DNA from: Actinomycetes bacterium
GTDB taxonomy: Bacteria > Actinomycetota > Acidimicrobiia > Acidimicrobiales > Bog-793
Assembly (NCBI GenBank): GCA_021797795.1
Contig: JAJZZB010000003.1
Span: 13,659-77,658 of the forward strand
Direction: 5' to 3'
DNA: 64,000 nt
Shown here: positions 39,504 through 55,211 of the stretch, one piece after another
Layout: each line of letters opens with the position of its first letter
Position numbering within the stretch: position 1 is the first letter of the stretch
Notes under the pieces: generated by a model
What the model was told of the DNA's origin: nothing
What the model saw: only the letters and a program-made list of their open reading frames with translations
Databases searched by the model: none
Made by a program: the position numbers and the translations under genes

Positions 39504-40642
39504 GACCGGGGCCGGGGCGCGAGGAGCTCGCCGTAATCGAGCCGGCGGAACGGCGTCGAGCACGGCGGGCCGTCGGCCAGCCACATTGTCCGGCTGGCGA
39601 GCTCCATCACGAGCGAGGCCACCGTCGCCCCCTGCTCGGCCGGCGGGTACTCGGGCCGCGGGTGGCAGCAGATGGCGTCGGGGTATCCGGCGTGGTCTCC
39701 GAGCAGCGCCCGCATCTCCTCGGCGCTCGGGCTGCCGTTACCGAGCTGCGCACGTGCGCGCTCGAGGCGGACGGCGCTGTCGGGCATGGCGAACAGCGAG
39801 ACGTCCTCACCGTCGAAGCGGGGGGAGACGAAGTGGTTGGTGTGCAGGTGGACGCCGACCGCGGCCGGCGAGACGAACAGGCGGGAGTGGTCGCCCGGGG
39901 CGGCCTCGACGTCGAGGGCGGAGCCGTCCTCGTGGGCGACGAGGAAGTTCGCCGAGGAGGAGCGCCTCGCCCGCTGGAGGGTGGTGAGCGCCTCGGTGAC
40001 CGTCGCGCAGTCGAAGATCGCCCGGAGCAGCACGTGGTAGGGCACCCCCGGCTCGCCGACATCGGCGGCGGTGGCGAGGGCGTTCGTGGCGAGGCCGAGA
40101 CCGGCCGAGTTCATCCCGGCCTTGGCGGCGAGTCCGGCCTCGACGACGGTGACGAAGCTCGGGCCGTCCTCCCGGACCGCCTCGAGGACGACGACAGTCT
40201 CGAAGGCGTGCGGCAGCCAGTCCCAGTTCTGGCCAATGACGACCGGCCGGTCGGAGCCCGACCGCGGGGCGAGGGCGAACGACGTGCACTCGCCGCCGAA
40301 GAAGGCGGCCCTCGCGTCGCGGGCCTTGGCCGAGTACATGATCTCGGTCCGGACGTTGATAGCGAGGACGTCGAGCAGGTCGGTGCCCACCCCCTGGGCG
40401 ATGCCGGAGAGCTCCTCGAGGTAGTCGCGCCCGAAGGCGGCGATCGGCGCCTCGTAGCCGGCCGCCACCTCCCGCACCGTGGACCAGTCCCAGCCGGCGC
40501 CCTCCTCGAACACCTCCCGGTAGGCGGCGATGGAGCGCTCGACGCGCGAACGGGTCGCGGCCCCGTAGGCGAGCCCCCGCTCACGCGGGTCGCCCTCGAC
40601 GCGGACGTGGGGGTAGGTGGCGTGCTCCATCGGTGCTGGCAT
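39500..40642 (-). CDS. Peptidase C45 / acyl-CoA:6-APA acyltransferase family Ntn hydrolase
   Basis: GECTSF (N-terminal nucleophile Cys after autoprocessing), GQNWDW, AGMNSAGL, HTNHF. Confidence 0.88.
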   Translation of the reverse strand: MPAPMEHATYPHVRVEGDPRERGLAYGAATRSRVERSIAAYREVFEEGAGWDWSTVREVAAGYEAPIAAFGRDYLEELSGIAQGVGTDLLDVLAINVRTEIMYSAKARDARAAFFGGECTSFALAPRSGSDRPVVIGQNWDWLPHAFETVVVLEAVREDGPSFVTVVEAGLAAKAGMNSAGLGLATNALATAADVGEPGVPYHVLLRAIFDCATVTEALTTLQRARRSSSANFLVAHEDGSALDVEAAPGDHSRLFVSPAAVGVHLHTNHFVSPRFDGEDVSLFAMPDSAVRLERARAQLGNGSPSAEEMRALLGDHAGYPDAICCHPRPEYPPAEQGATVASLVMELASRTMWLADGPPCSTPFRRLDYGELLAPRPRS

Positions 40643-40652
40643 GTGCTCCCTC

Positions 40653-41429
40653 CTAGATGGCGGTGGCACCGCCGTCGACCGGGAGGGCGGCGCCGGTGAC
40701 GTAGGCGGCATCGGGGGAGGCGAGGAAGGCGATCACCGCCGCCACCTCGTCGGCCGAGCCGAGGCGGCCGAGGGGGACCGAGCTCTCGAGGTAGGCGGCC
40801 GCCGCCACCGGGTCGTCGGTGAGCCGCAGCATGGGGGTGTCGATAACGCCCGGGCAGACGGCGTTGACCCGGATGCCGTGCGGAGCCCACTCGACGGCCA
40901 TCTGCCGGCTGAGGGCGAGCACCCCGCCCTTGCTCGCGTGGTAGTGGCCGGAGGGCTCGCCGGCGTCGCCGACGAGCGCCGCGCTCGAGGCGAGGTTGAC
41001 GACGGCGCCCGGGTGCCGCGCCGCCACGAGGGAGCGCCCGACGGCTCGGGAGACGAGGAAGGTGCCGGTGAGGTTGGTCTCGAGCACCTCGTGCCACTCC
41101 GCCGCCGACAGCTCAGTGAGGGCCTGGATCCGGTAGACGCCAGCGGCGTTGACGAGCACGTCGATCGGCCCGCCGAGCACGCGGGCGGCCTCCGCCACGG
41201 CCCGGTCCACGGCCTCCTCGTCGGCCACGTCGGCGATGACGAGGCTCATCCCGTCGACCTCCCCGCCGGGAGCCTCCCGGCGGTCGAGGGCCACGACCGC
41301 CCCGCCCTCTGCGGCGAGCCGGCGCGCCGTGGCGAGCCCGATGCCCGATGCCCCGCCCGTGACGAGGCAGCGCCGGCCGGCCATCCTGGCGGGCAGGGGG
41401 ACGGGCGCCTCAGTTGTGGAAGACGCCAC
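40653..41429 (-). CDS. Short-chain dehydrogenase/reductase
   Basis: TGGASGIG, VNAAG, YHASKGG, VNAVCPG, VDGG; start may be ATG near 41384. Confidence 0.9.
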   Translation of the reverse strand: MASSTTEAPVPLPARMAGRRCLVTGGASGIGLATARRLAAEGGAVVALDRREAPGGEVDGMSLVIADVADEEAVDRAVAEAARVLGGPIDVLVNAAGVYRIQALTELSAAEWHEVLETNLTGTFLVSRAVGRSLVAARHPGAVVNLASSAALVGDAGEPSGHYHASKGGVLALSRQMAVEWAPHGIRVNAVCPGVIDTPMLRLTDDPVAAAAYLESSVPLGRLGSADEVAAVIAFLASPDAAYVTGAALPVDGGATAI

Positions 41430-42180
41430 CGTTCACCCCGATCGTCTGGCCGGTCACATACGAGGCGTCGGCGGAGGCGAGCCAGCTCACCACCCCGGCG
41501 ATGTCGGCTCCCGTGCCGTGGCGTCCGAGCGGGATCTCGGCCCGCACCGCCTGAAACTGCTCCTCAAAGGAGGTCCCGGCCCGCTCGGCACGCGCCCGCA
41601 GCTCGTCCCAGTGCATCTCGGTCGCCATGTGCCCCGGGGCGATGGCGTTCACCCGGATCCCCTCTGGGGCGAGCTCGCGGGCCATTGACTGGGTGAGCAG
41701 GGCGACGCCGGCCTTCGAGGCCGAGTAGGCGGCGCCGCCGGGCACCCCCTGCTGGCCAAAGAGGGAGCCCATGTTGACGATGCTGCCGCCGGTGCCCTGG
41801 GCGAGCATTGCGGAGACGACGAGGCGCGAGACGAGGAAGGTCCCGACGAGGTTGATGTCGAGGACGTGGCGGAAGGACTCGGGCTCGGTCGAGACGACGG
41901 GCGTGCTCGGGCCGCCGATGCCGGCGTTGTTCACGAGCAGGTCGACCCCGCCGAGGACGGCGAGCGCCCCGGAGACGGCCGAGGCGCACTCCTCGACGAG
42001 CGCGACGTCGGCCACCACCGGGGCGATCGTCGCGGCCGGGGACTTGGCCGAGAGGCGCTTGGCCGTGACCTCGACGGCAGAATCGACGTCGACGAGGACG
42101 ACGTCGCCGCCATCCTCCACGATGCGGGCGGCGATTGCCTCCCCAAGGCCGCGCGCCGCGCCGGTGACGATGGCCCTCAC
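41410..42180 (-). CDS. Short-chain dehydrogenase/reductase
   Basis: TGAARGLG, NNAGI, YSASKA, VNAIAPG, TGQTIGVNGG; GTGA overlap. Confidence 0.9.
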   Translation of the reverse strand: MRAIVTGAARGLGEAIAARIVEDGGDVVLVDVDSAVEVTAKRLSAKSPAATIAPVVADVALVEECASAVSGALAVLGGVDLLVNNAGIGGPSTPVVSTEPESFRHVLDINLVGTFLVSRLVVSAMLAQGTGGSIVNMGSLFGQQGVPGGAAYSASKAGVALLTQSMARELAPEGIRVNAIAPGHMATEMHWDELRARAERAGTSFEEQFQAVRAEIPLGRHGTGADIAGVVSWLASADASYVTGQTIGVNGGVFHN

Positions 42181-42956
42181 AACGACGACGCGATCTCGGC
42201 CGCCGTCGCGACCCAGACGTCCTCGTGGCTCTTCACGTAGCCGAGGAAGGCGTCGAGCAGCGCCAGCCGGCTCGGCCTCCCGATGATCTGCGGGTGCATC
42301 GTGAGCACGAAGGCTCCTCCCATCTGCCGGATGCCGAGGAACTCCTCCTGCCAGATGGAGCGCACGTCGGCGGTGGTCGAGATCGTGTTGGTCCAGCCGG
42401 CGCCGTCGAACCAGAAGTGGGCGGCGTCGTCGAGGATCCACTGGATCGGCAGCTCCACGACGCTCGTGCCCGGGTGGCGGTAGGGGCGGATGTCGTCCAT
42501 CAGGTTGGAGCAGTAGCTGAGGCCGTACTTCTCGACCAGGCCGAGCGTCACCGGGGTGAGCTCCCAGGAGGGAGAGCGGTAGCCGGTCACCTTCGGGGAG
42601 AAGCCGCGAAGCACCTCGAGGCCGCGGCGCATCTCCTCCTCCTCCTCCTCGGGGCTGAGGGAGGTGACCGAGGTGTGGGTGTAGCCGTGATGGGCGAGCT
42701 CGTGGCCGGCGGCGACGATCTGCTCGACGCGGCCGGGGTGGCGCTCGGCCACCCGGCCGGGGACGAAGAAGGTCGCCCGCACCTGGTGGCGCTCGAGCAA
42801 CTCGAGGATCGCCGGCACAGCCACCCTGGCGCCGTAGCCCCCCTGGGAGAGCACGCCCGGGCGGGAGCCATTGGCCGGGTCCTCGCCGATCCAGACCTCC
42901 TCGGCGTCGAAGTCGAAGGTGAAGCAGGCTGCGGCGGCGGCGTCACGGGGCCACAT
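42177..42956 (-). CDS. Polysaccharide-deacetylase (CE4) fold protein, PuuE-like small-molecule amidohydrolase
   Basis: FTFDFD, GHELAHHGYTH, GYRSPSW, TMHPQIIGRPSR. Confidence 0.85.
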   Translation of the reverse strand: MWPRDAAAAACFTFDFDAEEVWIGEDPANGSRPGVLSQGGYGARVAVPAILELLERHQVRATFFVPGRVAERHPGRVEQIVAAGHELAHHGYTHTSVTSLSPEEEEEEMRRGLEVLRGFSPKVTGYRSPSWELTPVTLGLVEKYGLSYCSNLMDDIRPYRHPGTSVVELPIQWILDDAAHFWFDGAGWTNTISTTADVRSIWQEEFLGIRQMGGAFVLTMHPQIIGRPSRLALLDAFLGYVKSHEDVWVATAAEIASSL

Positions 42957-44055
42957 CGGTCGGCGCTCCTGTCGTGTCGTGGATGGCGATGGGGTCGAGC
43001 GCCCCGGCGGTCCCTCCGGCCGGCGCGACGCCCTCGGTCGCCTCCGGCTCCTCGGCCTCCTCCTCGCCTTCCTCCGCCCAGGCGGACAGGCGGGCCCGCA
43101 CCTTGCCGACGAGGCCGACGATCCCGCCGGGGACGAAGACGACGATGACGAGCAGGAAGATGCCGACGACGGTCAGCTGGACACCGGGATGGTTGACGAG
43201 CACCGTCTCGACGACGGTGACGATGGTCGTCCCGATCGCCGGTCCGAAGATGGTGCCGAGGCCGCCGATGACGAGCATGGTGACGTCGAGGCTCATCGGG
43301 GTGAGACCCATGATCGACGGGTCGATCGACTGCTCGAAGCACAGGTAGAGCGCCCCCGCGATGCCAGCGAGGAAGCCCGAGAGGCCGAAAGCGAGGATCC
43401 GGTAGCGAAGCGGGCTCACGCCCCGGGCGGCCGCGAACGCCGGCGCGTCCCGGATCGCCCTGAGGGCGATGCCGAGCCTCGACCGCGTGACGAGTGCGAT
43501 GGCGACGGTCGAGGCGACGATCACCCCGAGCAGCGTCCAGTAGTAGGCGTGCATGGAGGCGACCGGCGACAGGAACGAGTAGAGACCCTTCACGCTCGGG
43601 AAGCCGTAGGAGCCGCCCGTCAGCCCGCTGCCGTCGTTCAGGATCAGGTACTGGACGATCTCGGCGAAGGCGAAGGTGAGCAGCGAGGTGTAGATCCCGA
43701 ACAGCCGCAGCGTCGGGACCGCCATCAGCACCGAGACCGCCGCCCCGATGAGCCCGCCCACGACGACGTCGAGGACGGGCGGGAGGCCCGTGTGCAGCAT
43801 GAGGATGCCGGCGCCGTAGCCGCCGAGGGCGTAGACGGCCAGTTGGCCGAAGTTCCACACGCCGGCGACGCCGAGGATGAAGTTCCAGCTCATGTTCATC
43901 ACGAGCAGGATCATCGTGGTGACGAAGACCGAGAGGATGTACTGGTTGGACTCGACGAGGGGGAAGGCCGCCAGCGCCAGGACGACGAGGACCGCCAGGC
44001 TCCACCGCCCGCTCGTCATGTCGGGGAACAGCGCCCGGCTGTGCCCCTCGTTCAC
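42943..44055 (-). CDS. livM: Branched-chain-type ABC permease (LivM)
   Basis: MSWNFILGVAGVWNFGQ, TFAFAEI, LTGGSYG, GLGTIFGP. Confidence 0.9.
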   Translation of the reverse strand: MNEGHSRALFPDMTSGRWSLAVLVVLALAAFPLVESNQYILSVFVTTMILLVMNMSWNFILGVAGVWNFGQLAVYALGGYGAGILMLHTGLPPVLDVVVGGLIGAAVSVLMAVPTLRLFGIYTSLLTFAFAEIVQYLILNDGSGLTGGSYGFPSVKGLYSFLSPVASMHAYYWTLLGVIVASTVAIALVTRSRLGIALRAIRDAPAFAAARGVSPLRYRILAFGLSGFLAGIAGALYLCFEQSIDPSIMGLTPMSLDVTMLVIGGLGTIFGPAIGTTIVTVVETVLVNHPGVQLTVVGIFLLVIVVFVPGGIVGLVGKVRARLSAWAEEGEEEAEEPEATEGVAPAGGTAGALDPIAIHDTTGAPTDVAP

Positions 44056-44942
44056 AGCCGAGCCTCCGAGGGCTTCCCGAGCAGGCCCTGGGGCCGGAAG
44101 ATGAGGACGAAGAGGATCACCCCGTAGAGGATCGGGAGCGACCAGGTCGTCCCGAGGAACACCTCGGTCGTGGCCTGGATGAGCCCGATGACGTAGGCGG
44201 CGTAGACCGTGCCGGGCAGGCTGCCGAGCCCGCCGAAGACGACGACGATGAGCGCCTCGAGCAGCGGCAGATCGCCCGCCTGGGGGTAGGCGAAGAACTG
44301 GGCGCCGAGGAAGACGCCCGCCACGCCCGCCAGCGAGGAGGCGAGCCCCATGGTGACGGGGTAGAGCTTGGAGACCGGGACGCCCATCAGGCGGGCGGCG
44401 TCCAGGTCCTGCGCGACTGCCCGGATGGCCATGCCCCACCGGGTCTTGCCGAGGAACAGCCCGAGGCCGCCCATCAGCAGGATCGAGATGGCCGCCATGG
44501 CGATCGACTGATAGGGCAGGTTCACCCCGTGGTAGACGTTCACGCCGCCGGAGACGACCGGCGTGACGTTGCGCTGCTGGGGGCCGAAGACCTCGAGGGC
44601 GACGTTCTCGAGGATCATCGCGACGGCGAAGGTCGTGATGAAGGTGACCATCTCGAAGTCGATGGCCTTGCGCCGACCCATGAGGGGCTGGACCGAGACG
44701 AGCTGGGTCATCATCCCGAGGACGAAGGTGGCGGCGAAGGCGAAGACGATGGCGAGGACGGGGTTCCAGTGGGCCGAGACGAGGATCCCCCAGCCGACGA
44801 AGCTACCGATCATCACCATCGATCCCTGGGACATGTCGAGGATGCGCAGGGTCCCGTAGATGAGCGTCATGCCGATCGCCACGAGCCCGTAGATGGACCC
44901 AAGGATGACGGTCGTGACGAGGATTCCGACGAGGTCGGTCAT
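44052..44942 (-). CDS. livH: Branched-chain-type ABC permease (LivH)
   Basis: LGSIYGLVAIGMTLIYG, WGMAIRAVAQD..ARLMGV, VFGGLGSLPG. Confidence 0.92.
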   Translation of the reverse strand: MTDLVGILVTTVILGSIYGLVAIGMTLIYGTLRILDMSQGSMVMIGSFVGWGILVSAHWNPVLAIVFAFAATFVLGMMTQLVSVQPLMGRRKAIDFEMVTFITTFAVAMILENVALEVFGPQQRNVTPVVSGGVNVYHGVNLPYQSIAMAAISILLMGGLGLFLGKTRWGMAIRAVAQDLDAARLMGVPVSKLYPVTMGLASSLAGVAGVFLGAQFFAYPQAGDLPLLEALIVVVFGGLGSLPGTVYAAYVIGLIQATTEVFLGTTWSLPILYGVILFVLIFRPQGLLGKPSEARL

Positions 44943-45664
44943 CAGGTGATGCTCCCGAGGTAGGCCGCGACAACGCCTTCGTCCTCGGAGAGCTCCTTGT
45001 AGGAGCCGCTCCGGGTGATCGAGCCCATCTCGAGGACGTGGATCGAGTCGGCGATGCCGCCGACGTGGGTGAAGTTCTCCTCGACGAGGAGGATCGTCGT
45101 CTTGGCGGACTTGAGCTCGGCGATGGCGCCGTAGACGGCGTCGAGCGCGACGGGGGCGAGGCCGAGCGAGGGCTCGTCGATCATGAGGATCGTGGACGGG
45201 CGCATGAGCGCCCGGCCGAGCGCGCTGAGGCGCCGCTCTCCCCCGGACAGGGTCCGCGCCTGCTGGTCGGCCCGGGCCTTCACGCCGGGGAAGAGGTCGT
45301 AGACGTGGGCGAGCGAGCGGCGCCGGTCCCTCCAGGACTGCCCGAGGAAGGCCCCCATGAGGAGGTTGTCCTCCACGGTCATCTCCGGGAAGAGGCCGTC
45401 GCCCTGGGGGACGAGCACCGCTCCGAGGCGGGCGATCTGCTCGGACGGGCGGCCGGCGATCTCCTCGCCATCGAGGAGGACCTCTCCGGCGCTCGGCCTG
45501 ATCAGGCCGTTGAGCGCCCGCAGGAGCGTCGTCTTGCCGTGACCGTTCGGGCCGATGATGACGGCCGACTCGCCTGCGCGCACCTCGAGGTCGAGCTCCC
45601 TCACGACCGTCGTGGCGCCGTATCCGGCCGACAGCCGGCGCACCGAGAGCAGCGGCTCGCTCAC
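44942..45664 (-). CDS. livF: ABC ATPase (LivF)
   Basis: GPNGHGKTT, LSGGE, MIDEPSLGLAP. Confidence 0.92.
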   Translation of the reverse strand: MSEPLLSVRRLSAGYGATTVVRELDLEVRAGESAVIIGPNGHGKTTLLRALNGLIRPSAGEVLLDGEEIAGRPSEQIARLGAVLVPQGDGLFPEMTVEDNLLMGAFLGQSWRDRRRSLAHVYDLFPGVKARADQQARTLSGGERRLSALGRALMRPSTILMIDEPSLGLAPVALDAVYGAIAELKSAKTTILLVEENFTHVGGIADSIHVLEMGSITRSGSYKELSEDEGVVAAYLGSIT

Positions 45665-46416
45665 TGCGCCGCCTCCCTGCGGTGCCGCGAGCCGAGGTAG
45701 ACCTCGATCACCCGCTCGTCGCGGAGCATTTCCTCCGGGCTCCCCTCGAAGAGGGCGGCGCCGTGGTGCATGACGAGGACCCGGTCCGCCAGCGAGGTGA
45801 GCGCCCGCATGACGTGCTCGATGCAGACGACGGCGAGGTCCGCGCCCCGCGACCGCCGGATGAGGTCCATCGTGAGCTCGATCTCGCCGAAGCTGAGGCC
45901 GCCGAAGGGCTCGTCGAGCAGGAGCGCCCGGGCGCCCGAGGCGAGCGCCGTCCCGAGCATCAGCCGCTTGGTGTCGAAGACGCCGAGCAGACCGGCGGTC
46001 TCCTCGGCACGGCTCTCGAGTCCGACGAAGGCCAGCATGTCGTAGGCGGCCTCGAGGGACGAGCGCTTGTCGCCCTCGGGGAGGCGGCGGCGGAAGGAAA
46101 CGGCGAGTAGCATGTTCTCGAGGACGGAGAGGGAGCGGGCGACCGTCGGCTGCTGGAAGGTGCGGGCGATGCCGCGCCGGGTCCGGTCGTGCACTGAGGC
46201 GTCGGTGACGACCGCGCCGTCGAGGACGACCTCCCCGCCCGAGGCCCGGGTGTGGCCGGAGATGACGTCGAACAGCGTCGTCTTGCCGGCGCCGTTCGGG
46301 CCGACGATGCCGAGGATCTCGCCGGGCGCCACCGAGAAGGAGATGTCGTTCACCGCTTTCAGGCCCCCGTAGCTCTTCGAGACCCCCCGGGCCTCGAGGA
46401 CGGGGCCGGCGCTCAC
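45661..46416 (-). CDS. livG: ABC ATPase (LivG)
   Basis: GPNGAGKTT, GIARTFQ, LLLDEP, CIEHVM. Confidence 0.92.
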   Translation of the reverse strand: MSAGPVLEARGVSKSYGGLKAVNDISFSVAPGEILGIVGPNGAGKTTLFDVISGHTRASGGEVVLDGAVVTDASVHDRTRRGIARTFQQPTVARSLSVLENMLLAVSFRRRLPEGDKRSSLEAAYDMLAFVGLESRAEETAGLLGVFDTKRLMLGTALASGARALLLDEPFGGLSFGEIELTMDLIRRSRGADLAVVCIEHVMRALTSLADRVLVMHHGAALFEGSPEEMLRDERVIEVYLGSRHRREAAQ

Positions 46417-47735
46417 TTCTTCAGCCAAGGCGGAAGCTGGAAGGATCCGGTCGTGTACGGGTCCGGTCCGATGAGGACCTGCTTGCCGTTCTGGATCTGG
46501 AAGGTGAGGTGCGGCATCCCGACCGAGGGGTCCTTGGTGTAATCCGGGTACGGGTAGCAGGTGAGGTAGTCGTCCGGCCAGCTGTAGGCCCCGCAGACGC
46601 CGCGGTAGATCGTGTTCTTCACTATTGCGTTCACCTTGTCGAAGGCGTAGGGGTCGCCCGCCTCGGCCACGGCGTCCGCCCAGATGCGGACGAGGTCGTA
46701 CTGGTCGCCGGCGTTGGAGAAGCCGGGCGAGGCGTTGAACTTCTGCTCGAAGGCGGTGTTGAACCGCTGGGAGATGTAGTCGCCCTCGACGACGCCGACG
46801 ACCGTCGACCAGATGACGCCGTCGGCCGCCGCGCCGGCGAGCTGGAGGTACTGTGGGATCGACGGCGCGTACTGCTGGTAGACGAGCGAAGGGGTCGGCG
46901 ACTGGCGGAACTGCTTGATGAACGACGCCTCGTCGCCGGCCGCGTAGTCGCTGAAGAAGACGATGCCCGGCGGCGTGTTGCGGATCTGGACGAGGGCGGC
47001 CGTCCAGTCGGCCTGGGGGACGGTGAACTCCTGGAACATCGTCGTGTGCCAGCCCTGCCTGGACATCGTCGCCTGGAAGGTCTTCGAGATGTTGAGGCTG
47101 TAGGGGTCGTTGCTCGTCACGATCGCCATCGTCTTGGACGACGGCGTCCAGGTGTTCTTCTTGATGAGGTTGTCGACGAGATAGGCGAAGCCCGGCCCGT
47201 ACCAGGTCTCGGAGGGGTCGCCCTGGAAGATGTTCGTGATGCCGTTGGACTTCACGAAGTCCACGTTCCCGTGCCAGGTGTTGACGTGGAAGGTCGGGAT
47301 CTTGGCCTGGGCGACGATCGGGAACTCGACCGAGCTGTAGGTGCAGAAGGGGGCGAAGACGGCCGCCACGTTCTGGGAGACGAACTTCTGAAAGACGTTC
47401 TTCATGACGTCGGGCTGCTGCTCCTCGGTGTTGAGCACCGACAGCTGCAGGGGCCGGCCGAGCACGCCGCCGGCCGCGTTGATCTCGGCCACCGCCAGCT
47501 GCTGGCCGCGGAGCATCATCTGGCCGTCGCCGGAGTAGGCGCCCGTGACTGGCACGCCGGAGCCGATGACGAGCGGCTGTCCCTTGCCACCCGAGGCGGT
47601 CGCGTCCGAGGCGGTGGTGGAGCTGCCGTGCCCGAAGTAGCCGGCGAGGCCTCCGACGACGAGGCCGCCGGCTCCGGCTGCTCCGACGCCCTGCAGGAAC
47701 TCGCGCCGGCTGAGCGACTTGCGGTTGTTCGGCAT
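46413..47735 (-). CDS. Tat-exported ABC substrate-binding protein (type I periplasmic fold)
   Basis: Twin-arginine signal SLSRREFLQG; LVIGSGVPVTG, EINAAGGVLGRP, YAPSIP. Confidence 0.9.
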   Translation of the reverse strand: MPNNRKSLSRREFLQGVGAAGAGGLVVGGLAGYFGHGSSTTASDATASGGKGQPLVIGSGVPVTGAYSGDGQMMLRGQQLAVAEINAAGGVLGRPLQLSVLNTEEQQPDVMKNVFQKFVSQNVAAVFAPFCTYSSVEFPIVAQAKIPTFHVNTWHGNVDFVKSNGITNIFQGDPSETWYGPGFAYLVDNLIKKNTWTPSSKTMAIVTSNDPYSLNISKTFQATMSRQGWHTTMFQEFTVPQADWTAALVQIRNTPPGIVFFSDYAAGDEASFIKQFRQSPTPSLVYQQYAPSIPQYLQLAGAAADGVIWSTVVGVVEGDYISQRFNTAFEQKFNASPGFSNAGDQYDLVRIWADAVAEAGDPYAFDKVNAIVKNTIYRGVCGAYSWPDDYLTCYPYPDYTKDPSVGMPHLTFQIQNGKQVLIGPDPYTTGSFQLPPWLKK

Positions 47736-47926
47736 CCTCGGCCTCCTCAGGTCTGATCTTCGGTCGGGGGATCGCGAAGTCCGCACACGATCGCAGATGT
47801 CCGGGAGGGCGTCATCGGTCGATTGACGTATTTTCACTTCTTGCGATGGTCAATGATCGAGTAGGGTGCGGACGGCCAGGGGAGAGTCGTTCCGACCCTC
47901 GAAGGGGTGTGGTGCGCCAGACCAGC

Positions 47927-49687
47927 ATGGGCGGATCCGGGCCGCCGGCCCGGGCGATGACCGCCTGCGTCGACCGCAGCGGGAGGATCACCGGGGCGGG
48001 TACAGGCGCGGACGCGACGACCGCTCTCGGTCGGCACCCCGCCCTCGTTGACTACGCCATCGCGCTGCTGGGCGGTGAAGCCACCTCGGCCCGGTTCTTC
48101 TACAAGGGCGAGGGGCGCAGCTTGATCAAGGTGTCGCTCCAGCGGGACGACGACGGCGAGCGGGCCCTCGTCTCCCTCGCCGTCTCGGCGCTCCCCGCCG
48201 GACTCACCGCGAGGGAGCTCGACGTGCTCTCCATCCTCGTCGGGGGGCTCTCCAACCGGCAGATCGCCGAACGGCTCGTCACGAGCGTGCGGACGGTCTC
48301 GACCCATGTCGAGCACATCCTCGCCAAGCTCGGGCAGGAGACCCGTGCCGGCGCGGCCGCCGTCGCGGCCGAGCGAGGCTGGGTCCTGCTCCCCGTCCCG
48401 GGAGGGGTGGCGCTGCCGCCCGACCTCTCCGTCGGCGCCCTGCAGGCCCTCGCCGGCGGCGGCTCGGTAGCCGACACGCCCACGTCCCCCCGGCGCCCGC
48501 CCCGCCGCCGCCGAACCCTCGTCATCGGATCGGCCTTCCCCCTGAGCGGGCCGGCGGCGGCCGACGGGCTCGAGATGCTGAACGGCTCGGCGCTCGCCGT
48601 CGCCGAGCTGAACTCCCGGGGCGGGATCACCGGACGGCGGATCGAGCAGCTCGTCGTCGACGCCGACATCTTCTCGGTCGACGGCGTCCAGCGGGCGCTC
48701 GAGACGCTCGTGGCGGCCGGCGTCGACGCCATCACGTCGGGCTACGTCTTCATAGAGGATCCCGCGAGAGAGGTCGCCGCCGACTACGGCGCTCCCTACC
48801 TGCACTCGATGACCTCTGAGTCACAGGCCCGGATCGTGAGCGACAACCACGAGCTGTACCGCAGCATCTTCCAGGTCTGCCCGACCGAGCGCTACTACGC
48901 GAGCGGCTTCGTCCGGTTCCTCGCCGACCTCGAGGCCTCCGGCAGCTGGACCCCGCACGCCCGCCGACTCGCCTTCCTCGAGACTGCGCTGCCGAGCGGG
49001 CAGATGCTTAACGAGCTCGCCGTCGAGGCGGCCCACCGGGCGGGGTACTGCATCTCGGCCGAGACGGTGGCGCCGCTCGGGGCCGACTGGGGGGCCGTTG
49101 TCGACTCGCTCGAGCGCACCGACCCGGCGGCGGTGATGGTGACGCAGTTCCTCGCGAGCGAGCTCGCCGCCTTCCAGCGGGAGATCGCGAGGCGCGCCCC
49201 TCACGTCCTCGTCTACGGGGTCTACGCCCCCTCCGTACCGGAGTTCCTCGACCTCGCCGGCCCGGCAGCTGAGGGGATGTGCTGGGCGACGGTCACCGGC
49301 ACCTACTCCGACACGATCGGGGCGCAGTTCCGCCAGAGCTACGAGCGGGCCTGGGGCCGGCCGGCCGGGCGCTCCAACGCCGGCATCGCCTACGACGAGA
49401 TCCACCTGCTCGCCCAGGCCTGGTGCACCGTGGCCGAGCCGTCCGACTTCAGGTCGGTCGCCGACCAGCTGCGGCGGGTGCGCTACCGCGGGGTGAACGG
49501 GGCCTACTACCTCGACAACCCCGGGCAGTGCGGCCTCGTCTTCCCCGACGCCACGCCCGACCCCTCGCTCGCCCAGGCCCACCTCGTCTTCCAGATCCAA
49601 GGGGGCGCCCACCGCATCGTCGCCCCGGCGCCCTACGCAGACGCCACGTTCCGCTGGGCTCCGCTGAGCCGCCTCACCGCCGACTGA
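47927..49687 (+). CDS. One-component regulator: N-terminal region + LuxR/GerE HTH + C-terminal substrate-binding-protein domain
   Basis: LTARELDVLSILVGGLSNRQIAERLVTSVRTVSTHVEHILAKLG; then LVIGSAFPLSG, ELNSRGGITGRRIE; no signal peptide; start 47927 or 47957. Confidence 0.85.
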   Translation: MGGSGPPARAMTACVDRSGRITGAGTGADATTALGRHPALVDYAIALLGGEATSARFFYKGEGRSLIKVSLQRDDDGERALVSLAVSALPAGLTARELDVLSILVGGLSNRQIAERLVTSVRTVSTHVEHILAKLGQETRAGAAAVAAERGWVLLPVPGGVALPPDLSVGALQALAGGGSVADTPTSPRRPPRRRRTLVIGSAFPLSGPAAADGLEMLNGSALAVAELNSRGGITGRRIEQLVVDADIFSVDGVQRALETLVAAGVDAITSGYVFIEDPAREVAADYGAPYLHSMTSESQARIVSDNHELYRSIFQVCPTERYYASGFVRFLADLEASGSWTPHARRLAFLETALPSGQMLNELAVEAAHRAGYCISAETVAPLGADWGAVVDSLERTDPAAVMVTQFLASELAAFQREIARRAPHVLVYGVYAPSVPEFLDLAGPAAEGMCWATVTGTYSDTIGAQFRQSYERAWGRPAGRSNAGIAYDEIHLLAQAWCTVAEPSDFRSVADQLRRVRYRGVNGAYYLDNPGQCGLVFPDATPDPSLAQAHLVFQIQGGAHRIVAPAPYADATFRWAPLSRLTAD

Positions 49688-49734
49688 GAGGCCGGCTGCC
49701 CGCGCCCGGAGTCTCCCGGCGCCCGTGGCGTGGC

Positions 49735-51720
49735 CTACAGCTCGCTTCCCGCCACGAGCCCCTCGAGCACCGCCTCCTCGACGCTGCGGGGCGTCTGGCA
49801 GTCGCCGACGGCCACGGCCGGGACCGACCTCCGGGCGAGCTCGTCGAACAGCTCGCCCGCCGCTTCGTGCCCGCAGGCCAGCACGACGCCCGAGACCTTC
49901 TCCACGATGACCGGGTCGTCGGTGAGGACGTGCTGGAGGTACACGGCCTCGTCGTCGGCACCAAAGGGGCGGACGAGCGGGACCACCTCGATCTTCTGGC
50001 GGGCGAGGGCCGCCAGCTGGCGGTCCCGGACGTACTGCTGCAGCCCCTCGCCGGGGAAGTAGCCCCGGACGGCGAGCGTCACCCGCCGCCCGGCGGCCGC
50101 CAGCAGCCGGGCGGCGCCGAGGCCGACCCAGTCTCCCCGCCAGTCGACCACGACGATCCGCCCCGGCGGGGCCGAGGCAGGGTCCCTCACGATCTGCCAG
50201 GCGTCGGCGACGAAGGGCTCCCCCATCACCTCGAAGGGCGGCCGGTAGGGACGGGCGCCGGTGGCCACGACGACGACGTCGGCCGAGGCGGCCGCACAGG
50301 CCTCCGCGTCCATCTCGGTGTCGAAGCTGACCCTCACGCCGGCTCGGCGCACCTCGCGGTAGAGGTTGTCGACCGCCCCGCCGAACTCCTCCCGCCCCGG
50401 CAGGCGCTCGGCCAGCAGCACCTGGCCCCCGGGCCGGCCGGCAGCCTCGACGAGGTGGACCCGGTGGCCCCGATCGGCCGCCACGGCGGCCGCCTTCATG
50501 CCCGCCGGGCCGGCGCCGACGACGAGGATGTCCCGTGGCCTCACCGTCGGGATGCGGCGCCCGTAACGCCGCTCGCGGCCGGTCTCGGGGTGCTGGATGC
50601 ACGAGATGGGGTACCCGGCGTGGAAGTGGCCGATGCAGGCCTGGTTGCAGGCGATGCAGGCGCGGATCTCCTCGCTTCGCGCCGCGCGGGCGAGGGCCGG
50701 CAGCTCCGGGTCGCAGATGAGCGCCCGGGTCATGATGCAGGCGTCGGCCTGGGCGGCCTCGAGGACACGCTCGGCCTCCTGGGGCTGGTTGATCCGCCCG
50801 GCGACGAAGACGGGGACGTCGACGACGGCCTTCACCGCGGCGGCGGCGGGCGCCACGTAGGCGTTCGCCGAGCTCATCTCCGGGACGATGTGGTCCGAGC
50901 CCGCCAGAGTGGCCGAGGTCCCGGTCGTGACGCTCACGTAGTCGACGAGGCCGGCCCGGGCGAGGGACGAGAGCGCCTCGAGCGCGACCTCGCCCGGCAG
51001 GCCGTTCGGCTCCCGCTCGTCGAGCGAGATGCGGATGCCGACGGCTGCCCCCGGCCCGGCGGACGCACGCACCGTCTCGAGCACCTCGAGGAGGAACCGG
51101 AGCCGCCCCTCCGGCGAGCCCCCGTAGGCGTCGCGGCGCTGGTTCACGGCCGGGTTGAGGAACTGCGCCGGCAGGTAGCCGTGGCTGGCCACCACCTCGA
51201 CGCCGTCGAGCCCGGCGGCGACGAGCCGGCGGGCGGCGGACCCGTACCCCTCGACGATCTCGGCGATCTCCCCGGTGCGCAGCGCCCGTGGCATGACCCT
51301 GAAGCGCTCGTTCGGCACCGCCGAGGGCGCGAGCGCCACCGGCGCGCTGCCGTCGGTCGACTCCATGACCTCACGCCCGGGATGGAAGAGCTGGCCGAAC
51401 AGGGCGGTGCCGTGCGGTTTCACGGCCTCGGCCAGGCGGCGGTAGCCCTCGATGCAGGAGTCGTCGACCGCCATGAGGACGTGGCTCGTGTAGCGGGCGC
51501 TCTCGTGCACGCCGGCCACCTGGACGACGATCAGGCCGACCCCGCCGCGCGCCCGCGCCTCGTGGTAGGCGACGAGCTGGTCGGTGACCTTGCCGTGGTC
51601 CACCATGACGGTGTCGTGGCCGGAGGAGATGATCCGGTTGGCCAAGGCGACCGGCCCCACCACGAGCGGGCTGAACAGGCGGGAAAAGCTCGGTCCTGGA
51701 GCAGGCTGGCCGGCGCTCAC
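49735..51720 (-). CDS. OYE-family NADH:flavin oxidoreductase with Fe-S and FAD/NAD domains (2,4-dienoyl-CoA reductase/DgcA/HpbA architecture)
   Basis: ARARGGVGLI, QLFHPGR, SHGYL, CIACNQACIG..ISC, GAGPAG, AVGDCQTPR. Confidence 0.88.
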   Translation of the reverse strand: MSAGQPAPGPSFSRLFSPLVVGPVALANRIISSGHDTVMVDHGKVTDQLVAYHEARARGGVGLIVVQVAGVHESARYTSHVLMAVDDSCIEGYRRLAEAVKPHGTALFGQLFHPGREVMESTDGSAPVALAPSAVPNERFRVMPRALRTGEIAEIVEGYGSAARRLVAAGLDGVEVVASHGYLPAQFLNPAVNQRRDAYGGSPEGRLRFLLEVLETVRASAGPGAAVGIRISLDEREPNGLPGEVALEALSSLARAGLVDYVSVTTGTSATLAGSDHIVPEMSSANAYVAPAAAAVKAVVDVPVFVAGRINQPQEAERVLEAAQADACIMTRALICDPELPALARAARSEEIRACIACNQACIGHFHAGYPISCIQHPETGRERRYGRRIPTVRPRDILVVGAGPAGMKAAAVAADRGHRVHLVEAAGRPGGQVLLAERLPGREEFGGAVDNLYREVRRAGVRVSFDTEMDAEACAAASADVVVVATGARPYRPPFEVMGEPFVADAWQIVRDPASAPPGRIVVVDWRGDWVGLGAARLLAAAGRRVTLAVRGYFPGEGLQQYVRDRQLAALARQKIEVVPLVRPFGADDEAVYLQHVLTDDPVIVEKVSGVVLACGHEAAGELFDELARRSVPAVAVGDCQTPRSVEEAVLEGLVAGSEL

Positions 51721-51770
51721 CACCGGCTCCTCGTCCTCAAGGTGCCCACCTGTCGGCGGCCCAGCGCCGC

Positions 51771-53432
51771 TCACAGGAAGTACAGCCGGGAGAGGCTGAC
51801 ACGCTCTGCGGGAGGAGCGGAGACCACCTCTCCGTCGAGGCGGACCGTGCCGCTCCCGGGGTCGACGGTCACCTCGCCGGTCCGCGAGTTCCGGACCATC
51901 TCGGCCGGGCCGATTCCCCTCGTCCCGCTGACCGCCACCTTGCGCCGGGCCGTCGGCAGCCGGCCGGCCGAGCCGGCGAGGCCGGCAGCCGAGACGAAGG
52001 CGAGCGAGAGCTCGGCCGCCGCCGCCCCGTGACCTCCGAACTGGGGGCCGTAGACGAGCGGCTCGGCCCGGTCGACCGAGGCGTTCGGGTCGCCCGTCAG
52101 ACCCCAGGCGGGGAGGCCGGCCTTCAGCACGAGCGCCGGCTTGGCGCCAAAAGAGCTCGGCCGCCAGAGCACGACGTCCGCCAGCCGGCCGGGCTGGAGC
52201 GACCCGACCTCGCCGGACAGGCCGTGGGCGACGGCCGGGTTGATCGTGAGCTTGGCGAGGTAGCGGAGCACCCGTAAGTTGTCGTGCCCGGCCCCGTCGC
52301 CGCCGCGCAGCTCCTTCATCCGGGCCGCGAGGGCGAATGTGCGCCACACCGTCTCGCCCGCCCGGCCCATGCCCTGGGCGTCCGACGACGTGATCGGGAT
52401 GACCCCGAGGTCGTGCAGGACGCCCTCGGCACCCATCGTCCCTGCCCGGATGCGGTCGGCCGCCCGCAGGCGGTCTCCGTCGAGGTCGGGACGCAGGCCG
52501 TGGCAGGCGATGACCATGTCGAGCTGCTCGGACAGGGCGTCCCGGCCGAAGGGCAGCGAGGGGTTGGTGGACGAGGTGATGAGGCCCGGCCGCCCCGCCA
52601 GCGAGAGGACGTCGGGGACGTGCCCGCCACCGCAGCCCTCGACGTGGAAGGCGTGCACCGTCCGCCCGCCGATCACCGAGACGGTGTCCGCCACGCACAT
52701 CGTCTCGTTCAACCCGTCGGTGTGGAGGGCGACCTGGACGTCGTGCGCCTCGGCCACCTCGAGCGCCGTGTCGATCGAGCGCGGGTGGGCGCCGAGGTCC
52801 TCGTGGACCTTGAAGCCGCAGGCTCCGCCGTCGAGCGCCTCGTACAGCGGGTCGGGCCGCGAGGACGAGCCCCGGCCGAGGAAGCCGACGTTCACCGGCC
52901 AGGCGTCGAAGGCGGCGAAGGCCGCCCGCAGGATCCGGGGTGAGTTCACCCCGACGCCCCACACCGGTCCGAGCTCCTGGCCGATGACGGTGGTCACCCC
53001 TGAGGAGAGGGAGGCTTCGAGGATCCGGGGCGAGAGCAGGTGGACGTGGGTGTCGACCGCTCCCGCCGTCGCGATGAGGCCCTCGCCGGGGACGATCGTC
53101 GTCCCCGTCCCGACGACGATCTCGACGCCGTCCATCGTGTCCGGGTTCCCCGCTCTGCCGACTCCGGCGATCCGCCCGTCCCTGATGCCGATCGAAGCCG
53201 ACCGGATGCCGAGGACGGCGTCGAGTACGAGGGCGTTCGTCACGACGACATCGCAGGTGGTGGCCACGGAGGCGGCCTTCAGGTGCATGCCGTCGCGGCC
53301 GGTGCGACCGAAGCCGACGAGCAGCTCGTCGCCGGGCGCCTTCGAGTCCGCCTCCACCTCGACGACGAGGCCGGTGTCCCCGAGACGGACCCGGTCGCCC
53401 GCCCGGGGACCGTAGAGGTCGGCCAGGCTCAC
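51771..53432 (-). CDS. ureC: Urease alpha subunit, divergent (Streptomyces UreC2-like)
   Basis: [75 protein letters not shown]. Confidence 0.88.
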
Positions 53433-54112
53433 GGCTCTGCCACCGAGTCGAGGTAGCCGCAAGCCCTGGCAGTGGCGAGCGCCCGCTCGAGCGCGCCCGG
53501 CTCGTCGAGCGGGCCGTCGACGAGGCCGGCGAAGCCGACCACCACGCGACCGCCGGCGATCGGGACGAGACCGACCTCGCGCTCCTCCCCCGGGGCGAAG
53601 CGGACGGCGTCCCCGGCGGGCACGGCGAGGTGCATCCCGAAGGCTGCCGCCCGGTCGAAGCGAAGGCGCGGGTTCACCTCGAAGAAGTGGAAGTGCGACG
53701 TGACGCTGATCGGGACCGGGGCGGTGTTGAGCACCCGCACGTGGCGCTCGGCGAGGGGCCGGAACCCCTCGCTCCTCCGCTCGACCGCCCCCGGACCCGC
53801 GGGGGCCGGCGCCCCGAAGGGCCGCGGCACGACCGCGAGGCGCGTGCCGTCGTCGAAGACAGCCTCCACCTGCACCTCGGGAACGATCTCGGCCACGCCC
53901 GCAAGGACCTCGTCGGCCCGCAGGCACCGCCGGCCGGCCTCGATGGCCTCGGCGAGCCGGGCCCCGTCCCGGGCGGCCTCGATGACGGCGGAGGCGACGA
54001 GGGCGGTGGCCTCGGGGGCGTTCAGGGCGAGCCCACGCTGGCGCCGCCCGCTCGCGACGGCGGCGGCCGAGGCGATGAGAAGCCGGTCCCGCTCTGCTGG
54101 CGTGAGCTGCAC
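53429..54112 (-). CDS. ureAB: Fused urease gamma/beta subunit
   Basis: [32 protein letters not shown]; [33 protein letters not shown]; GGAGG RBS before GTG. Confidence 0.9.
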
Positions 54113-54134
54113 GATCCTCCCCGACCCCATGCCG

Positions 54135-54147
54135 TGACGTTTTGGCA
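54135..54147. promoter_or_regulatory. Candidate LacI-family operator (TGACGTTTTGGCA) between ureAB and the LacI gene
   Basis: CG-centred with an A/T tract, resembling LacI/GalR half-sites; only one half is convincing. Confidence 0.35.
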
Positions 54148-54176
54148 GCGGCCCCGCCGACGGTAACATTGCCGCC

Positions 54177-55211
54177 GTGGCGGGACAAGCGGCGAGCCGG
54201 TCCTCGGCCACCCCACGCCGCCGCCCGACGATCCGCGACGTCGCCCGCCTGAGCGGCGTCTCGCCGACGACCGTCTCCCATGCCCTCTCGGGCCACGGGC
54301 GGGTGGCGGCCGGCACGCGGCGTCGGGTCGAGCAGGCCGCCTCCCGGCTCGCCTATCGTGCCAACCCGGCGGCCCGGCACCTGCGGGAGGGCCGCACCGG
54401 GACGATCGGCCTCGCGCTCCCTCCGGGCGCAGGAGCCCTCTCGTACTACCTCGACCTCGCCCTCGGCGCTGCCCGGAGGGCACTGGGCGCCGGGCTCGCC
54501 CTCACCCTGCTTCCGGATCTCAGCCGGCCCTCGGAGGTGGCCGCCTTCGGCCTCGACGGCGTCGCCGTCGTCGACCCGGGCCGGGAGGACCCCCTCGTGA
54601 CCGAGCTCGCCCGCCTCGGCGTCCCGGTCGTGACGGGCGAGCGGCAGCTGACCGCCGGCACGGGGGCCGGACCTGCCGTCGAGACCGACCACAGGGAGGC
54701 CCTGAGGGAGCTGCTCGACCACCTCCTCGCCTCGGGCGCGAGGACGGTCGCCCTCGTCTCGCCGCCTCCGGACGTCGCCTTCGTCGCCGACACCCTGGCC
54801 GGCTACGAGGCATGGTGCCGCCGGAACGGGATCGCCCCCCTCGTCGCCGAGGTCCCCTTCATCGGCCAGCCCGACCAGGCCGAGGGAGCCGTCGGCGCGC
54901 TGCTCGGATCCTCCTCGCCGCCCGACGCCGTCGTCGGGGTCCCCGAGCACAGCGCCCTCGGCGTGGCGGCGGTCGCCTCCCGCCTCGGCCTCACCGTTCC
55001 CTCCGACCTGCTCGTCGCCTCCTGCGTCGACAGCCCGGCACACGCCATGGCGTGGCCGCCGATCACGGCGCTCGACCTTCGGCCCGACCTCGCCGGCGCC
55101 CGCCTCGTGGACGCGCTGGCGGCCCTCCTCGCCGGCGAGCCGGCCAGCGCCGAGCCGGTGGAGGCACGTCTCGTCGTGCGCGCCTCGACCCTGCGCCCGC
55201 CGACTGGTTAG
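54177..55211 (+). CDS. LacI-family transcriptional regulator
   Basis: [36 protein letters not shown]; TAACAT 7 nt before GTG (leaderless type). Confidence 0.93.

Follow-up and report, generated by a model that had tools for sequence, protein, structure and literature searches.

A urease-family gene pair with an altered active-site pocket and no UreD, UreF or UreG genes in an actinobacterial genome of the Bog-793 lineage

Among nickel enzymes, urease is the textbook case, and its need for the UreDEFG chaperones serves as a model for the building of metal centres. Here, we describe a gene pair, ureAB-ureC, in a 64,000-nucleotide stretch from a soil bacterium of the Actinomycetes (Acidimicrobiia, Acidimicrobiales, Bog-793; GenBank assembly GCA_021797795.1, contig JAJZZB010000003.1, positions 13,659 to 77,658, forward strand). 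This whole stretch is called the window, and positions are numbered from its first letter. The enzyme that the pair encodes is of the urease family, intact and strongly conserved, and its pocket carries a fixed change; chaperone genes (UreD, UreF or UreG) are lacking, and across the clade a guanidino- or amide-cleaving hydrolase is its near-constant partner. Gene pairs of this type have long been known and are routinely annotated as urease. The reading that we place first, tentatively and short of an even chance, is a self-maturing hydrolase of ureido groups that would act on an N-substituted urea.

A preliminary description, made from the letters of the window, had proposed a divergent urease without maturation genes, apparently cotranscribed with an Old Yellow Enzyme (OYE) oxidoreductase and possibly specific for a substrate other than urea.

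Gene pair and active site

The G+C content of the window (about 72%) makes raw lists of open reading frames noisy, and genes were placed by third-position G+C (GC3) frame plots and translations. These put ureAB, ureC and the flavoprotein gene that follows them on one strand, as first described, and show it to be the minus strand. The features on which the finding rests are as follows.

53429 to 54112, minus strand: ureAB, fused urease gamma-beta subunit, 227 amino acids (GTG start behind GGGAGGA; Pfam Urease_gamma 1.1e-32, Urease_beta 3.1e-29)
51771 to 53432, minus strand: ureC, urease alpha-subunit homologue, 553 amino acids (Pfam Urease_alpha 1.5e-37, Amidohydro_1 2.4e-43)
52938 to 52982, minus strand: short active-site loop, UreC residues 151 to 165, standing in for GGGTGPAAGTHATTCTPGP and 4 residues shorter around Ala167 (alignments)
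52494 to 52508, minus strand: flap motif ACHGL, catalytic His320 kept, next His replaced by Gly (CHH to CHG)
52365 to 52388, minus strand: SSDAQGMG, UreC residues 349 to 356, metal ligand Asp360 kept, Ser361 replaced by Ala and Ala363 by Gly

The GTG start of ureC and the ureAB stop overlap as GTGA. Together the two genes hold four Pfam families (PF00449, PF01979, PF00547 and PF00699), so that the N-terminal urease domain, the amidohydrolase barrel and the gamma and beta subunits are all present, and ureAB passes the NCBIfam model for bifunctional gamma/beta subunits (NF009671; 282 bits, cut-off 243).

Among solved structures, UreC best matched the alpha subunit of K. aerogenes urease (about 50% identity, E 3e-154 to 1e-154, 518 bits), and its identity to solved ureases ranged from 47 to 50%. 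Alignment to K. aerogenes UreC (whose numbering is used throughout for catalytic residues) showed that H134, H136, K217, H219, D221, H246, H272, H320, R336 and D360 are all kept, which bears out the earlier statement that the nickel ligands are retained. The same alignment confirmed the three differences that had been pointed out: the replaced loop, CHG for CHH in the flap, and SDAQGMG for SDSQAMG. Compared with the canonical nickel ureases of K. aerogenes (1FWJ, 2KAU) and Sporosarcina pasteurii (4CEU), the window enzyme thus has the same fold and subunits and shares the metal ligands, the carbamylated Lys, His219, Asp221, His320 and Arg336, but its loop is 4 residues shorter, Ala363 is Gly, Ser361 is Ala, UreD, UreF and UreG are lacking, and the equivalog score is missed.

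Published urease structures show the urea NH2 at the second nickel held by two backbone carbonyls, those of Ala167 and Ala363. Canonical ureases carry these carbonyls in the loop GGGTGPxxGTxATTCTPGP (Ala167) and in SDSQAMG (Ala363), and window UreC has neither sequence; since the loop around Ala167 and residue 363 itself are both altered, both positions that shape this corner of the pocket have changed. Among 78 clade alpha subunits, the ten metal-ligand and catalytic positions are invariant (78/78), the short loop and Gly363 are each universal (78/78), and S361A is missing from a single sequence (77/78). Such invariance of the catalytic set, the loop deletion and A363G at 69 to 74% identity argues for purifying selection and for a working but altered site.

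The NCBIfam models reflect this mixture. UreC fails the urease alpha equivalog (TIGR01792; 600.7 bits, cut-off 680) and passes the subfamily model (NF009686; 700 bits, cut-off 354), which assigns the name "urease subunit alpha"; automatic pipelines would accordingly name its relatives "urease".

Maturation genes and nickel uptake

The host assembly (3.8 Mb, 324 contigs, estimated 93.75% complete) contains one ureC and one ureAB, those of the window. The preliminary description had reported no ureD, ureE, ureF or ureG in 64 kb and proposed a genome search for ureD, ureF, ureG and a canonical ureC. That search covered the whole assembly (UreE lay outside it) and extends the observation: neither UreD nor UreF was found, and the best match to UreG was a CobW-like protein at 32 bits (cut-off 204). 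The window urease is therefore the only one in the assembly, and ureD, ureF and ureG do not lie elsewhere in it, so that the circumstance named beforehand as telling against the proposal, a sole urease with these genes at another place in the genome, does not apply.

The lack of a nickel transporter, also reported earlier, holds for the window and not for the genome, which encodes, on a different contig, a NiCoT permease for nickel or cobalt (340 bits; C283:25926-27689), divergent from a Fur-family regulator. The permease was also strong in three of the seven other accessory-free clade genomes tested (G310, G415 and G434). It shows only that uptake of nickel or cobalt is possible. The adjacent regulator could be Nur-like; a catalase gene with its own Fur-type regulator adjoins.

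The actinobacterial clade

Relatives were found at more than 500 loci in a species-level genome collection. The best 80, at 69 to 74% identity, belong to Streptomyces, Kitasatospora, Nonomuraea, Micromonospora, Actinocrinis, Intrasporangium and uncultured actinobacteria. In the clade the alpha gene directly follows a fused gamma-beta gene and accessory genes are absent from the vicinity; the window conforms to this layout. In a maximum-likelihood tree, window UreC fell in a 16-member actinobacterial clade with support of 100/100 (and also within a 96/90 set), and it shares the loop signature of the clade, which begins GQE[FL]. The likeness to the second urease set of streptomycetes that had been noted from the letters, and for which a phylogeny had been suggested, is thus upheld: the streptomycete, Nonomuraea and Kitasatospora ure(AB)C sequences, 69 to 74% identical, stand in this one clade.

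The known example of the type is the pair SCO5525/SCO5526 of Streptomyces coelicolor, which has the same fused gamma-beta and alpha order and no adjacent accessory genes, and which is recorded only as a gene-cluster type (PMC2492869, PMC3293853, PMC5489568); in the literature searched, we found no biochemical study of such a pair. The streptomycete alpha subunits compared here (SCO5525/5526 itself not among them) are 69 to 71% identical to window UreC and have the same short loop and GMG motif. In Streptomyces the pair adjoins a homologue of agmatine deiminase (SCO5527), and the genome has a canonical ureABCFGD cluster elsewhere, full clusters of this kind having been reported in streptomycetes (PMC3293853, PMC5489568). 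The host of the window, by contrast, has no deiminase and no canonical urease, and its pair is accompanied by a flavoprotein, a YtcJ-type amidohydrolase and a LacI-family regulator.

Maturation genes were also sought across 38 clade-bearing genomes. While 24 of these contain ureG, 11 (the host and 10 others) lack ureD, ureF and ureG; the 10 others include three genomes that are 95 to 98% complete, as well as cultured isolates of Micromonospora and Streptomyces thermocarboxydovorans. No UreG P-loop motif occurs within about 8 kb at any of 83 clade loci, whereas ureG stood beside ureC in all canonical control genomes. Two Actinocrinis genomes (G405:C36:2096-3634 and G408:C127:4602-5822) have ureF and ureD close together and no detectable ureG; the gap between them in the former, about 470 nucleotides, is too short for ureG.

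Partner hydrolases

Partners were counted within 5 kb at the 69 clade loci with at least 2.5 kb of flank on both sides. An agmatine-deiminase-like gene was present at 61 of the 69 and a YtcJ-type amidohydrolase gene at 6; no locus had both, and 2 had neither. Enzymes of the agmatine-deiminase family turn a guanidino group into a ureido group (PMC6447857). In the accessory-free genome G191 the deiminase gene is found downstream of ureC, whereas in G310, likewise accessory-free, its place is upstream of ureAB; this switch of order with adjacency kept argues for functional coupling.

The deiminase-like partners keep the catalytic residues and score under the agmatine deiminase equivalog cut-off. 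An acidic residue of the plant enzymes, Asp220, binds the far amine of agmatine, while bacterial enzymes bind that amine differently (PMC6447857); Asp220 aligns with a Gly in the partners, whose substrate, since they have no plant-type acidic residue, may be another guanidino compound.

The enzyme that follows agmatine deiminase in the known route, the N-carbamoylputrescine amidase AguB/CPA, belongs to the nitrilase superfamily, and its non-orthologous displacement was examined in the 38 genomes. None has an N-carbamoylputrescine amidase above the NCBIfam cut-off, and G310, which has the deiminase, has no related CN-hydrolase at all, yet a CN-hydrolase scoring about 250 bits is common in the other genomes. 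No guanidine riboswitch was found at nine clade loci.

Locally, the window has neither partner within 5 kb. Its YtcJ gene lies about 15 kb away, behind a block of 14,974 bp. In the subclade nearest to the window (Nonomuraea, Sphaerimonospora and others), a LacI gene is likewise divergent and the order is ureAB-ureC-YtcJ-permease; in the subclade to which the window belongs, the conserved partner is YtcJ.

Flavoprotein, regulator and the five-gene module

The remaining features of the locus are as follows.

49735 to 51723, minus strand: flavoprotein of the FadH/2-naphthoyl-CoA-reductase type, 662 amino acids (Pfam Oxidored_FMN, PF00724, 6.6e-60; Pyr_redox_2, PF07992, 1.8e-17)
51724 to 51770, minus strand: spacer between ureC and the flavoprotein gene, 47 nucleotides (50 if the second GTG is the start), with GAGGAG ahead of the flavoprotein GTG
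54113 to 54176, no strand: intergenic region between the LacI gene and ureAB, with a promoter-like site at 54142 to 54169 on the plus strand and the candidate operator GCCAAAACGTCACGGCA
54177 to 55211, plus strand: LacI-family regulator divergent from ureAB (Pfam LacI, Peripla_BP_3)
34752 to 49725, no strand: block of 14,974 bp and 13 genes that separates the flavoprotein gene from YtcJ, replaced by 69 unrelated nucleotides in L227 (L227:12707-12775; blastn, junction sequences)
32994 to 34676, minus strand: YtcJ-type amidohydrolase (Pfam Amidohydro_3), 560 amino acids, with 51 to 54% identical homologues directly after ureC in 7 loci
30672 to 32963, minus strand: fused APH-type kinase and class-III aminotransferase-like protein, 763 amino acids (Pfam APH, Aminotran_3), contiguous with YtcJ in L227

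The short gap and the divergent LacI gene are as first described. No terminator-like site was found in the spacer, and its predicted folding was not above that of shuffled sequence (z = -1.3); cotranscription of ureC and the flavoprotein gene is plausible on these grounds.

The name OYE suits the flavoprotein in part. It has the Oxidored_FMN domain, but its layout is of three domains, a flavin mononucleotide (FMN; OYE) barrel, a [4Fe-4S] motif (CIACNQAC...C, residues 356 to 375) and an FAD/NAD(P) domain, and the iron-sulfur motif CxxCxxxC...C marks it as a FadH-type protein rather than an Old Yellow Enzyme of the simple kind. The same layout is seen in FadH, 2-naphthoyl-CoA reductase and trimethylamine dehydrogenase. 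Matches to solved structures (6qkg and 1ps9) were modest, at about 235 bits, and the protein falls under every NCBIfam equivalog cut-off; the mycofactocin-system FadH/OYE oxidoreductase 2 (TIGR03997) was excluded at 556.6 bits (cut-off 793).

In all assemblies whose UreC is at least 90% identical, the flavoprotein gene stands about 50 nucleotides after ureC, and this adjacency is limited to the window's genus. As a partner for the whole clade the flavoprotein was rejected, since it is present at none of 79 other ureC loci, none of 45 loci of flavoprotein relatives has the urease, and a 72% identical relative (L082) has no ureC upstream. The earlier link between urease and OYE thus stands within this genus and not beyond it. 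Relatives of the flavoprotein that are 55 to 58% identical occur in Proteobacteria (L092:5631-13399, Pseudomonas putida; L087) beside a PuuR-like regulator gene; in P. putida, PotF/PotD-type binding proteins and a glutamine-synthetase-like protein are encoded there too, in what appears to be a catabolic locus of the polyamine type, so far uncharacterised.

A LacI gene 90 to 98% identical to that of the window is divergent from ureAB in close relatives, and one 45 to 50% identical is so placed at 7 loci (Nonomuraea, Sphaerimonospora and uncultured actinobacteria). Palindromes centred on AACGTT, such as AGGAACGTTCCT, occur at the same position in related loci. The window counterpart is only a weaker relative, GCCAAAACGTCACGGCA, which may be the operator of the LacI-ureAB region. 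At five loci of Nonomuraea and Sphaerimonospora (L003, L004, L005, L007 and L014), the palindrome AGGAACGTTCCT occurs twice in tandem between the LacI gene and ureAB, as CAGGAACGTTTCT and TTGCAGGAACGTTCCTG, likely an operator pair.

In L227, whose DNA is 99.6% identical, a LacI gene is followed by divergent ureAB-ureC-flavoprotein-YtcJ-kinase/phospho-lyase, all contiguous. This order, with the 14,974-bp block as an extra in the window, points to a five-gene module as the functional unit; in the window, the block places YtcJ and the kinase/phospho-lyase about 15 kb from the flavoprotein. The 763-amino-acid fusion, the last gene of the module, is a candidate amino-alcohol kinase/phospho-lyase, and L011 has a homologue (51% identical) in the vicinity of its ure locus. 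The block encodes a LuxR-type regulator, a binding protein, a LivGFHM-type transporter, a deacetylase-fold protein, two SDRs, a C45 hydrolase, an LLM oxidoreductase, HyuA and HyuB, and the last 25 HyuB codons in the window correspond to sequence that is intergenic in L227. The block may be a very recent gain, a very recent loss or a population variant. Control of the urease by the LuxR-type regulator was considered and rejected: the only palindrome found upstream of the regulator (AGCTTGATCAAGGT, at 48119) is not repeated close to ureAB or to the flavoprotein gene, and no link emerged.

Of the two candidates that the preliminary description had suggested as producing or consuming a substrate, the OYE and the neighbouring operon, the latter is better supported: the last two genes of that operon, YtcJ and the kinase/phospho-lyase, belong with the urease in L227, although about 15 kb separate them from it in the window.

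The wider short-loop lineage

In a search of 1.8 billion representative proteins and a second genome scan, the short loop and Gly363 were also found in ureases with a complete catalytic set from Thermomicrobia/Chloroflexia, Nanopelagicales, Egibacteraceae and Limnochordales-type Bacillota. Each of the 33 short-loop sequences examined has Gly363. Among genomes with such ureases, ureG is missing from 8 of 8 Thermomicrobia/Chloroflexia, 2 of 3 of the Nanopelagicales type, one of Egibacteraceae and two of the Limnochordales type.

Canonical long-loop, Ala363 ureases formed one clade (100/99) placed among the short-loop lineages (maximum-likelihood tree, midpoint root). This placement would make the long loop a derived insertion, with the direction of the loop change uncertain because the root is a midpoint. 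The nearest outgroup (Lachnospiraceae, Oscillospiraceae, Peptococcaceae and an alphaproteobacterium) has an intermediate loop, GGGAGPxTVGIExPGP, and ureG nearby at 4 of 6 loci.

Amine- and amide-handling genes recur at distant short-loop loci. L166 has the order YtcJ-ureAB-ureC-C45 hydrolase-DAO-type flavoprotein, and L220 has counterparts of the deacetylase-fold and C45 genes of the window (66% and 54% identical) and, upstream of ureAB-ureC, an acetylpolyamine-deacetylase-type gene. In Thermomicrobium (L179:9321-11466), two tandem arginase-family genes are convergent to a short-loop ureA-ureB-ureC, with a HyuA-like gene upstream; that genome has no accessory genes. No urea ABC transporter was found beside the Chloroflexia short-loop ureases, where the transporter is of the NMT1 type. 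Relatives with the proteobacterial arrangement ureEF(AB)CGD were sought through the representative P0005, to which nothing in the genome collection is closely related; that scan yielded instead the Chloroflexota and other short-loop lineages.

Eight metagenomic urease alpha homologues (P0023, P0044, P0051, P0052, P0054, P0057, P0108 and P0109) are full-length and 33 to 42% identical. They have lost most metal ligands and the carbamylated Lys and keep the canonical long loop, and from their sequences they appear to be a family of degenerate "pseudo-ureases".

Interpretation

The layout of the genes, the conservation of residues, the lack of accessory genes in the genome and the counts of neighbours are observations; that the enzyme is active and matures by itself, which metal and substrate it uses, and how its steps are ordered are what we infer. 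On the reading placed first, ureAB-ureC would be a catalytically competent two-metal hydrolase of the urease family, from a deep short-loop lineage, whose metal centre is built without UreD, UreF or UreG. It would supply the ureido-cleaving step of a LacI-controlled nitrogen-scavenging module made up of ureAB, ureC, the FMN/iron-sulfur flavoprotein, YtcJ and the kinase/phospho-lyase. The partner hydrolase (YtcJ here, the agmatine-deiminase-like enzyme in most relatives) would yield an N-substituted urea, that is, an N-carbamoyl amine. Its ureido group would be bound as urea is in urease, with the short Ala167 loop and the change of Ala363 to Gly giving the substituent room. Ammonia and an N-substituted carbamate would be released, the carbamate would lose CO2 spontaneously to leave the free amine, and the flavoprotein and the kinase/phospho-lyase would act on that amine.

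We rank an N-substituted urea first because deiminases make N-substituted ureas, because no N-carbamoylputrescine amidase was recognised in the 38 genomes, and because both carbonyl-bearing elements of the pocket have been rebuilt. A substrate other than urea, as the preliminary description proposed, is plausible in that it fits the clade-fixed pocket change and the deiminase at 61 of 69 loci, and urea stays a serious candidate. The overall reaction, N-carbamoyl amine to amine, CO2 and NH3 directly after agmatine deiminase, is of the type that AguB/CPA carries out. AguB/CPA has an unrelated fold and mechanism (a Cys-Glu-Lys triad), and the analogy with the window enzyme would be one of function, proposed as a hypothesis.

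More broadly, and with somewhat less confidence than the first-placed reading for the window pair, we suggest that short-loop ure(AB)C enzymes may not be ureases but N-carbamoyl-amine amidohydrolases that load their metal, possibly not nickel, without chaperones. With a guanidino deiminase or YtcJ they would form an undescribed two-step route from guanidino compounds or cyclic ureides to amines, taking the place of the nitrilase-type N-carbamoylputrescine amidase in many Actinomycetota, and the canonical chaperone-dependent nickel ureases would be a derived branch of an older, chaperone-free family.

Several observations weigh against an N-substituted urea as the substrate. Given 47 to 50% identity to solved ureases and the retention of the urea-contacting residues, the backbone positions apart, urea is the default expectation. 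The pocket is the same whether the partner is a deiminase or YtcJ, which fits one small common substrate such as urea, and what the loop deletion would do to the pocket is read from sequence and published urease structures. The CN-hydrolase of about 250 bits, possibly a diverged N-carbamoylputrescine amidase, is present in most clade genomes, including some without the deiminase. The host genome has no agmatine-deiminase homologue and has one agmatinase-like ureohydrolase, which would make urea, so that, with the NiCoT permease also present, the metal may be nickel and the substrate urea; the window urease is the only urease-family enzyme available to that genome. Finally, the arginase-family genes beside the Thermomicrobium short-loop urease are urea producers.

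Most of these points also favour the close rival that we place second, at a probability well short of even: a genuine urease that matures without UreD, UreF or UreG and has been recruited into nitrogen-catabolic operons, where it would clear urea coming from the neighbouring hydrolases or from the agmatinase-like enzyme, its short loop being a lineage trait unrelated to specificity. The full catalytic set and the strength of the match to solved urease (E about 1e-154) suit it, as does the NiCoT permease in the host and in three of the seven accessory-free genomes tested. The position of the canonical clade among short-loop lineages means that urea hydrolysis may be ancestral to all of them. 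There are also precedents for assembly of a urease-type metal centre without help. UreABC of Bacillus subtilis hydrolyses urea and works without UreDEFG. The iron urease UreA2B2 of H. mustelae (3QGA) likewise hydrolyses urea independently of accessory proteins (PMC3919588) and has a two-gene layout like that of the window pair, although window UreC is not closer to it than to the canonical enzyme (481 bits to 3qga_C, 518 bits to K. aerogenes).

Against a genuine urease stand the deiminases within 5 kb at 61 of 69 loci, whose known products are N-substituted ureas and not urea (PMC6447857), and the fixed rebuilding of both backbone positions that hold the urea NH2. The presence of ureG in 24 of 38 clade genomes, and of ureABCFGD clusters in streptomycetes (PMC3293853, PMC5489568), suggests a non-redundant role for the short-loop pair, a pattern that a role as metal back-up would also account for. 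At the loci examined, no genes for urea transport could be recognised, and the nine clade loci without a guanidine riboswitch offer nothing for a route from guanidine to urea.

It is unlikely that the substrate is another small C-N compound (a carbamate ester, a formamide- or acetamide-type amide, biuret or an allantoate-type ureide) supplied by the 15-kb block through HyuAB, the deacetylase-fold protein or the C45 hydrolase. That block does hold several amide- or lactam-cleaving folds, two of which (the deacetylase-fold protein and the C45 hydrolase) recur beside the short-loop urease in L220, and canonical ureases are weakly active on formamide, acetamide and hydroxyurea. However, the block is missing from L227, which keeps ureAB-ureC-flavoprotein-YtcJ, so that the urease is independent of it, and the dominant partner in the clade, a guanidino-group deiminase, points to ureido chemistry. 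Least probable of all is that the pair is an inactive or nonenzymatic relic (apo-urease), or that it is a canonical nickel urease and the incomplete assembly caused its accessory genes to be missed: the 324 contigs and 93.75% completeness, and the existence of degenerate metagenomic paralogues without metal ligands, give it some room, but all ligands are invariant over 78 sequences, three independent accessory genes are missing here and in 10 other clade genomes, cultured isolates included, and ureG is missing from 8 of 8 Thermomicrobia/Chloroflexia genomes with short-loop ureases.

Significance

In the literature searched, we found no definition of a cross-phylum short-loop Gly363 lineage or of its systematic lack of UreD, UreF and UreG, and no account of the near-obligate, mutually exclusive pairing with two hydrolase families or of the five-gene module. 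In more than 500 relatives, the catalytic apparatus is whole, the chaperones are missing and the pocket is rebuilt. If the substrate is urea, these enzymes would be a natural case of chaperone-free assembly of the urease centre, with a bearing on metal selectivity and on the expression of urease in other hosts. If N-substituted ureas are the substrates, the urease fold would serve a second physiological reaction, a gap in the catabolism of agmatine and guanidino compounds by actinobacteria would be closed, and the capacity for urea breakdown, where it is judged by counting "urease genes" in metagenomes from soil, caves and nitrifiers, would come out too high.

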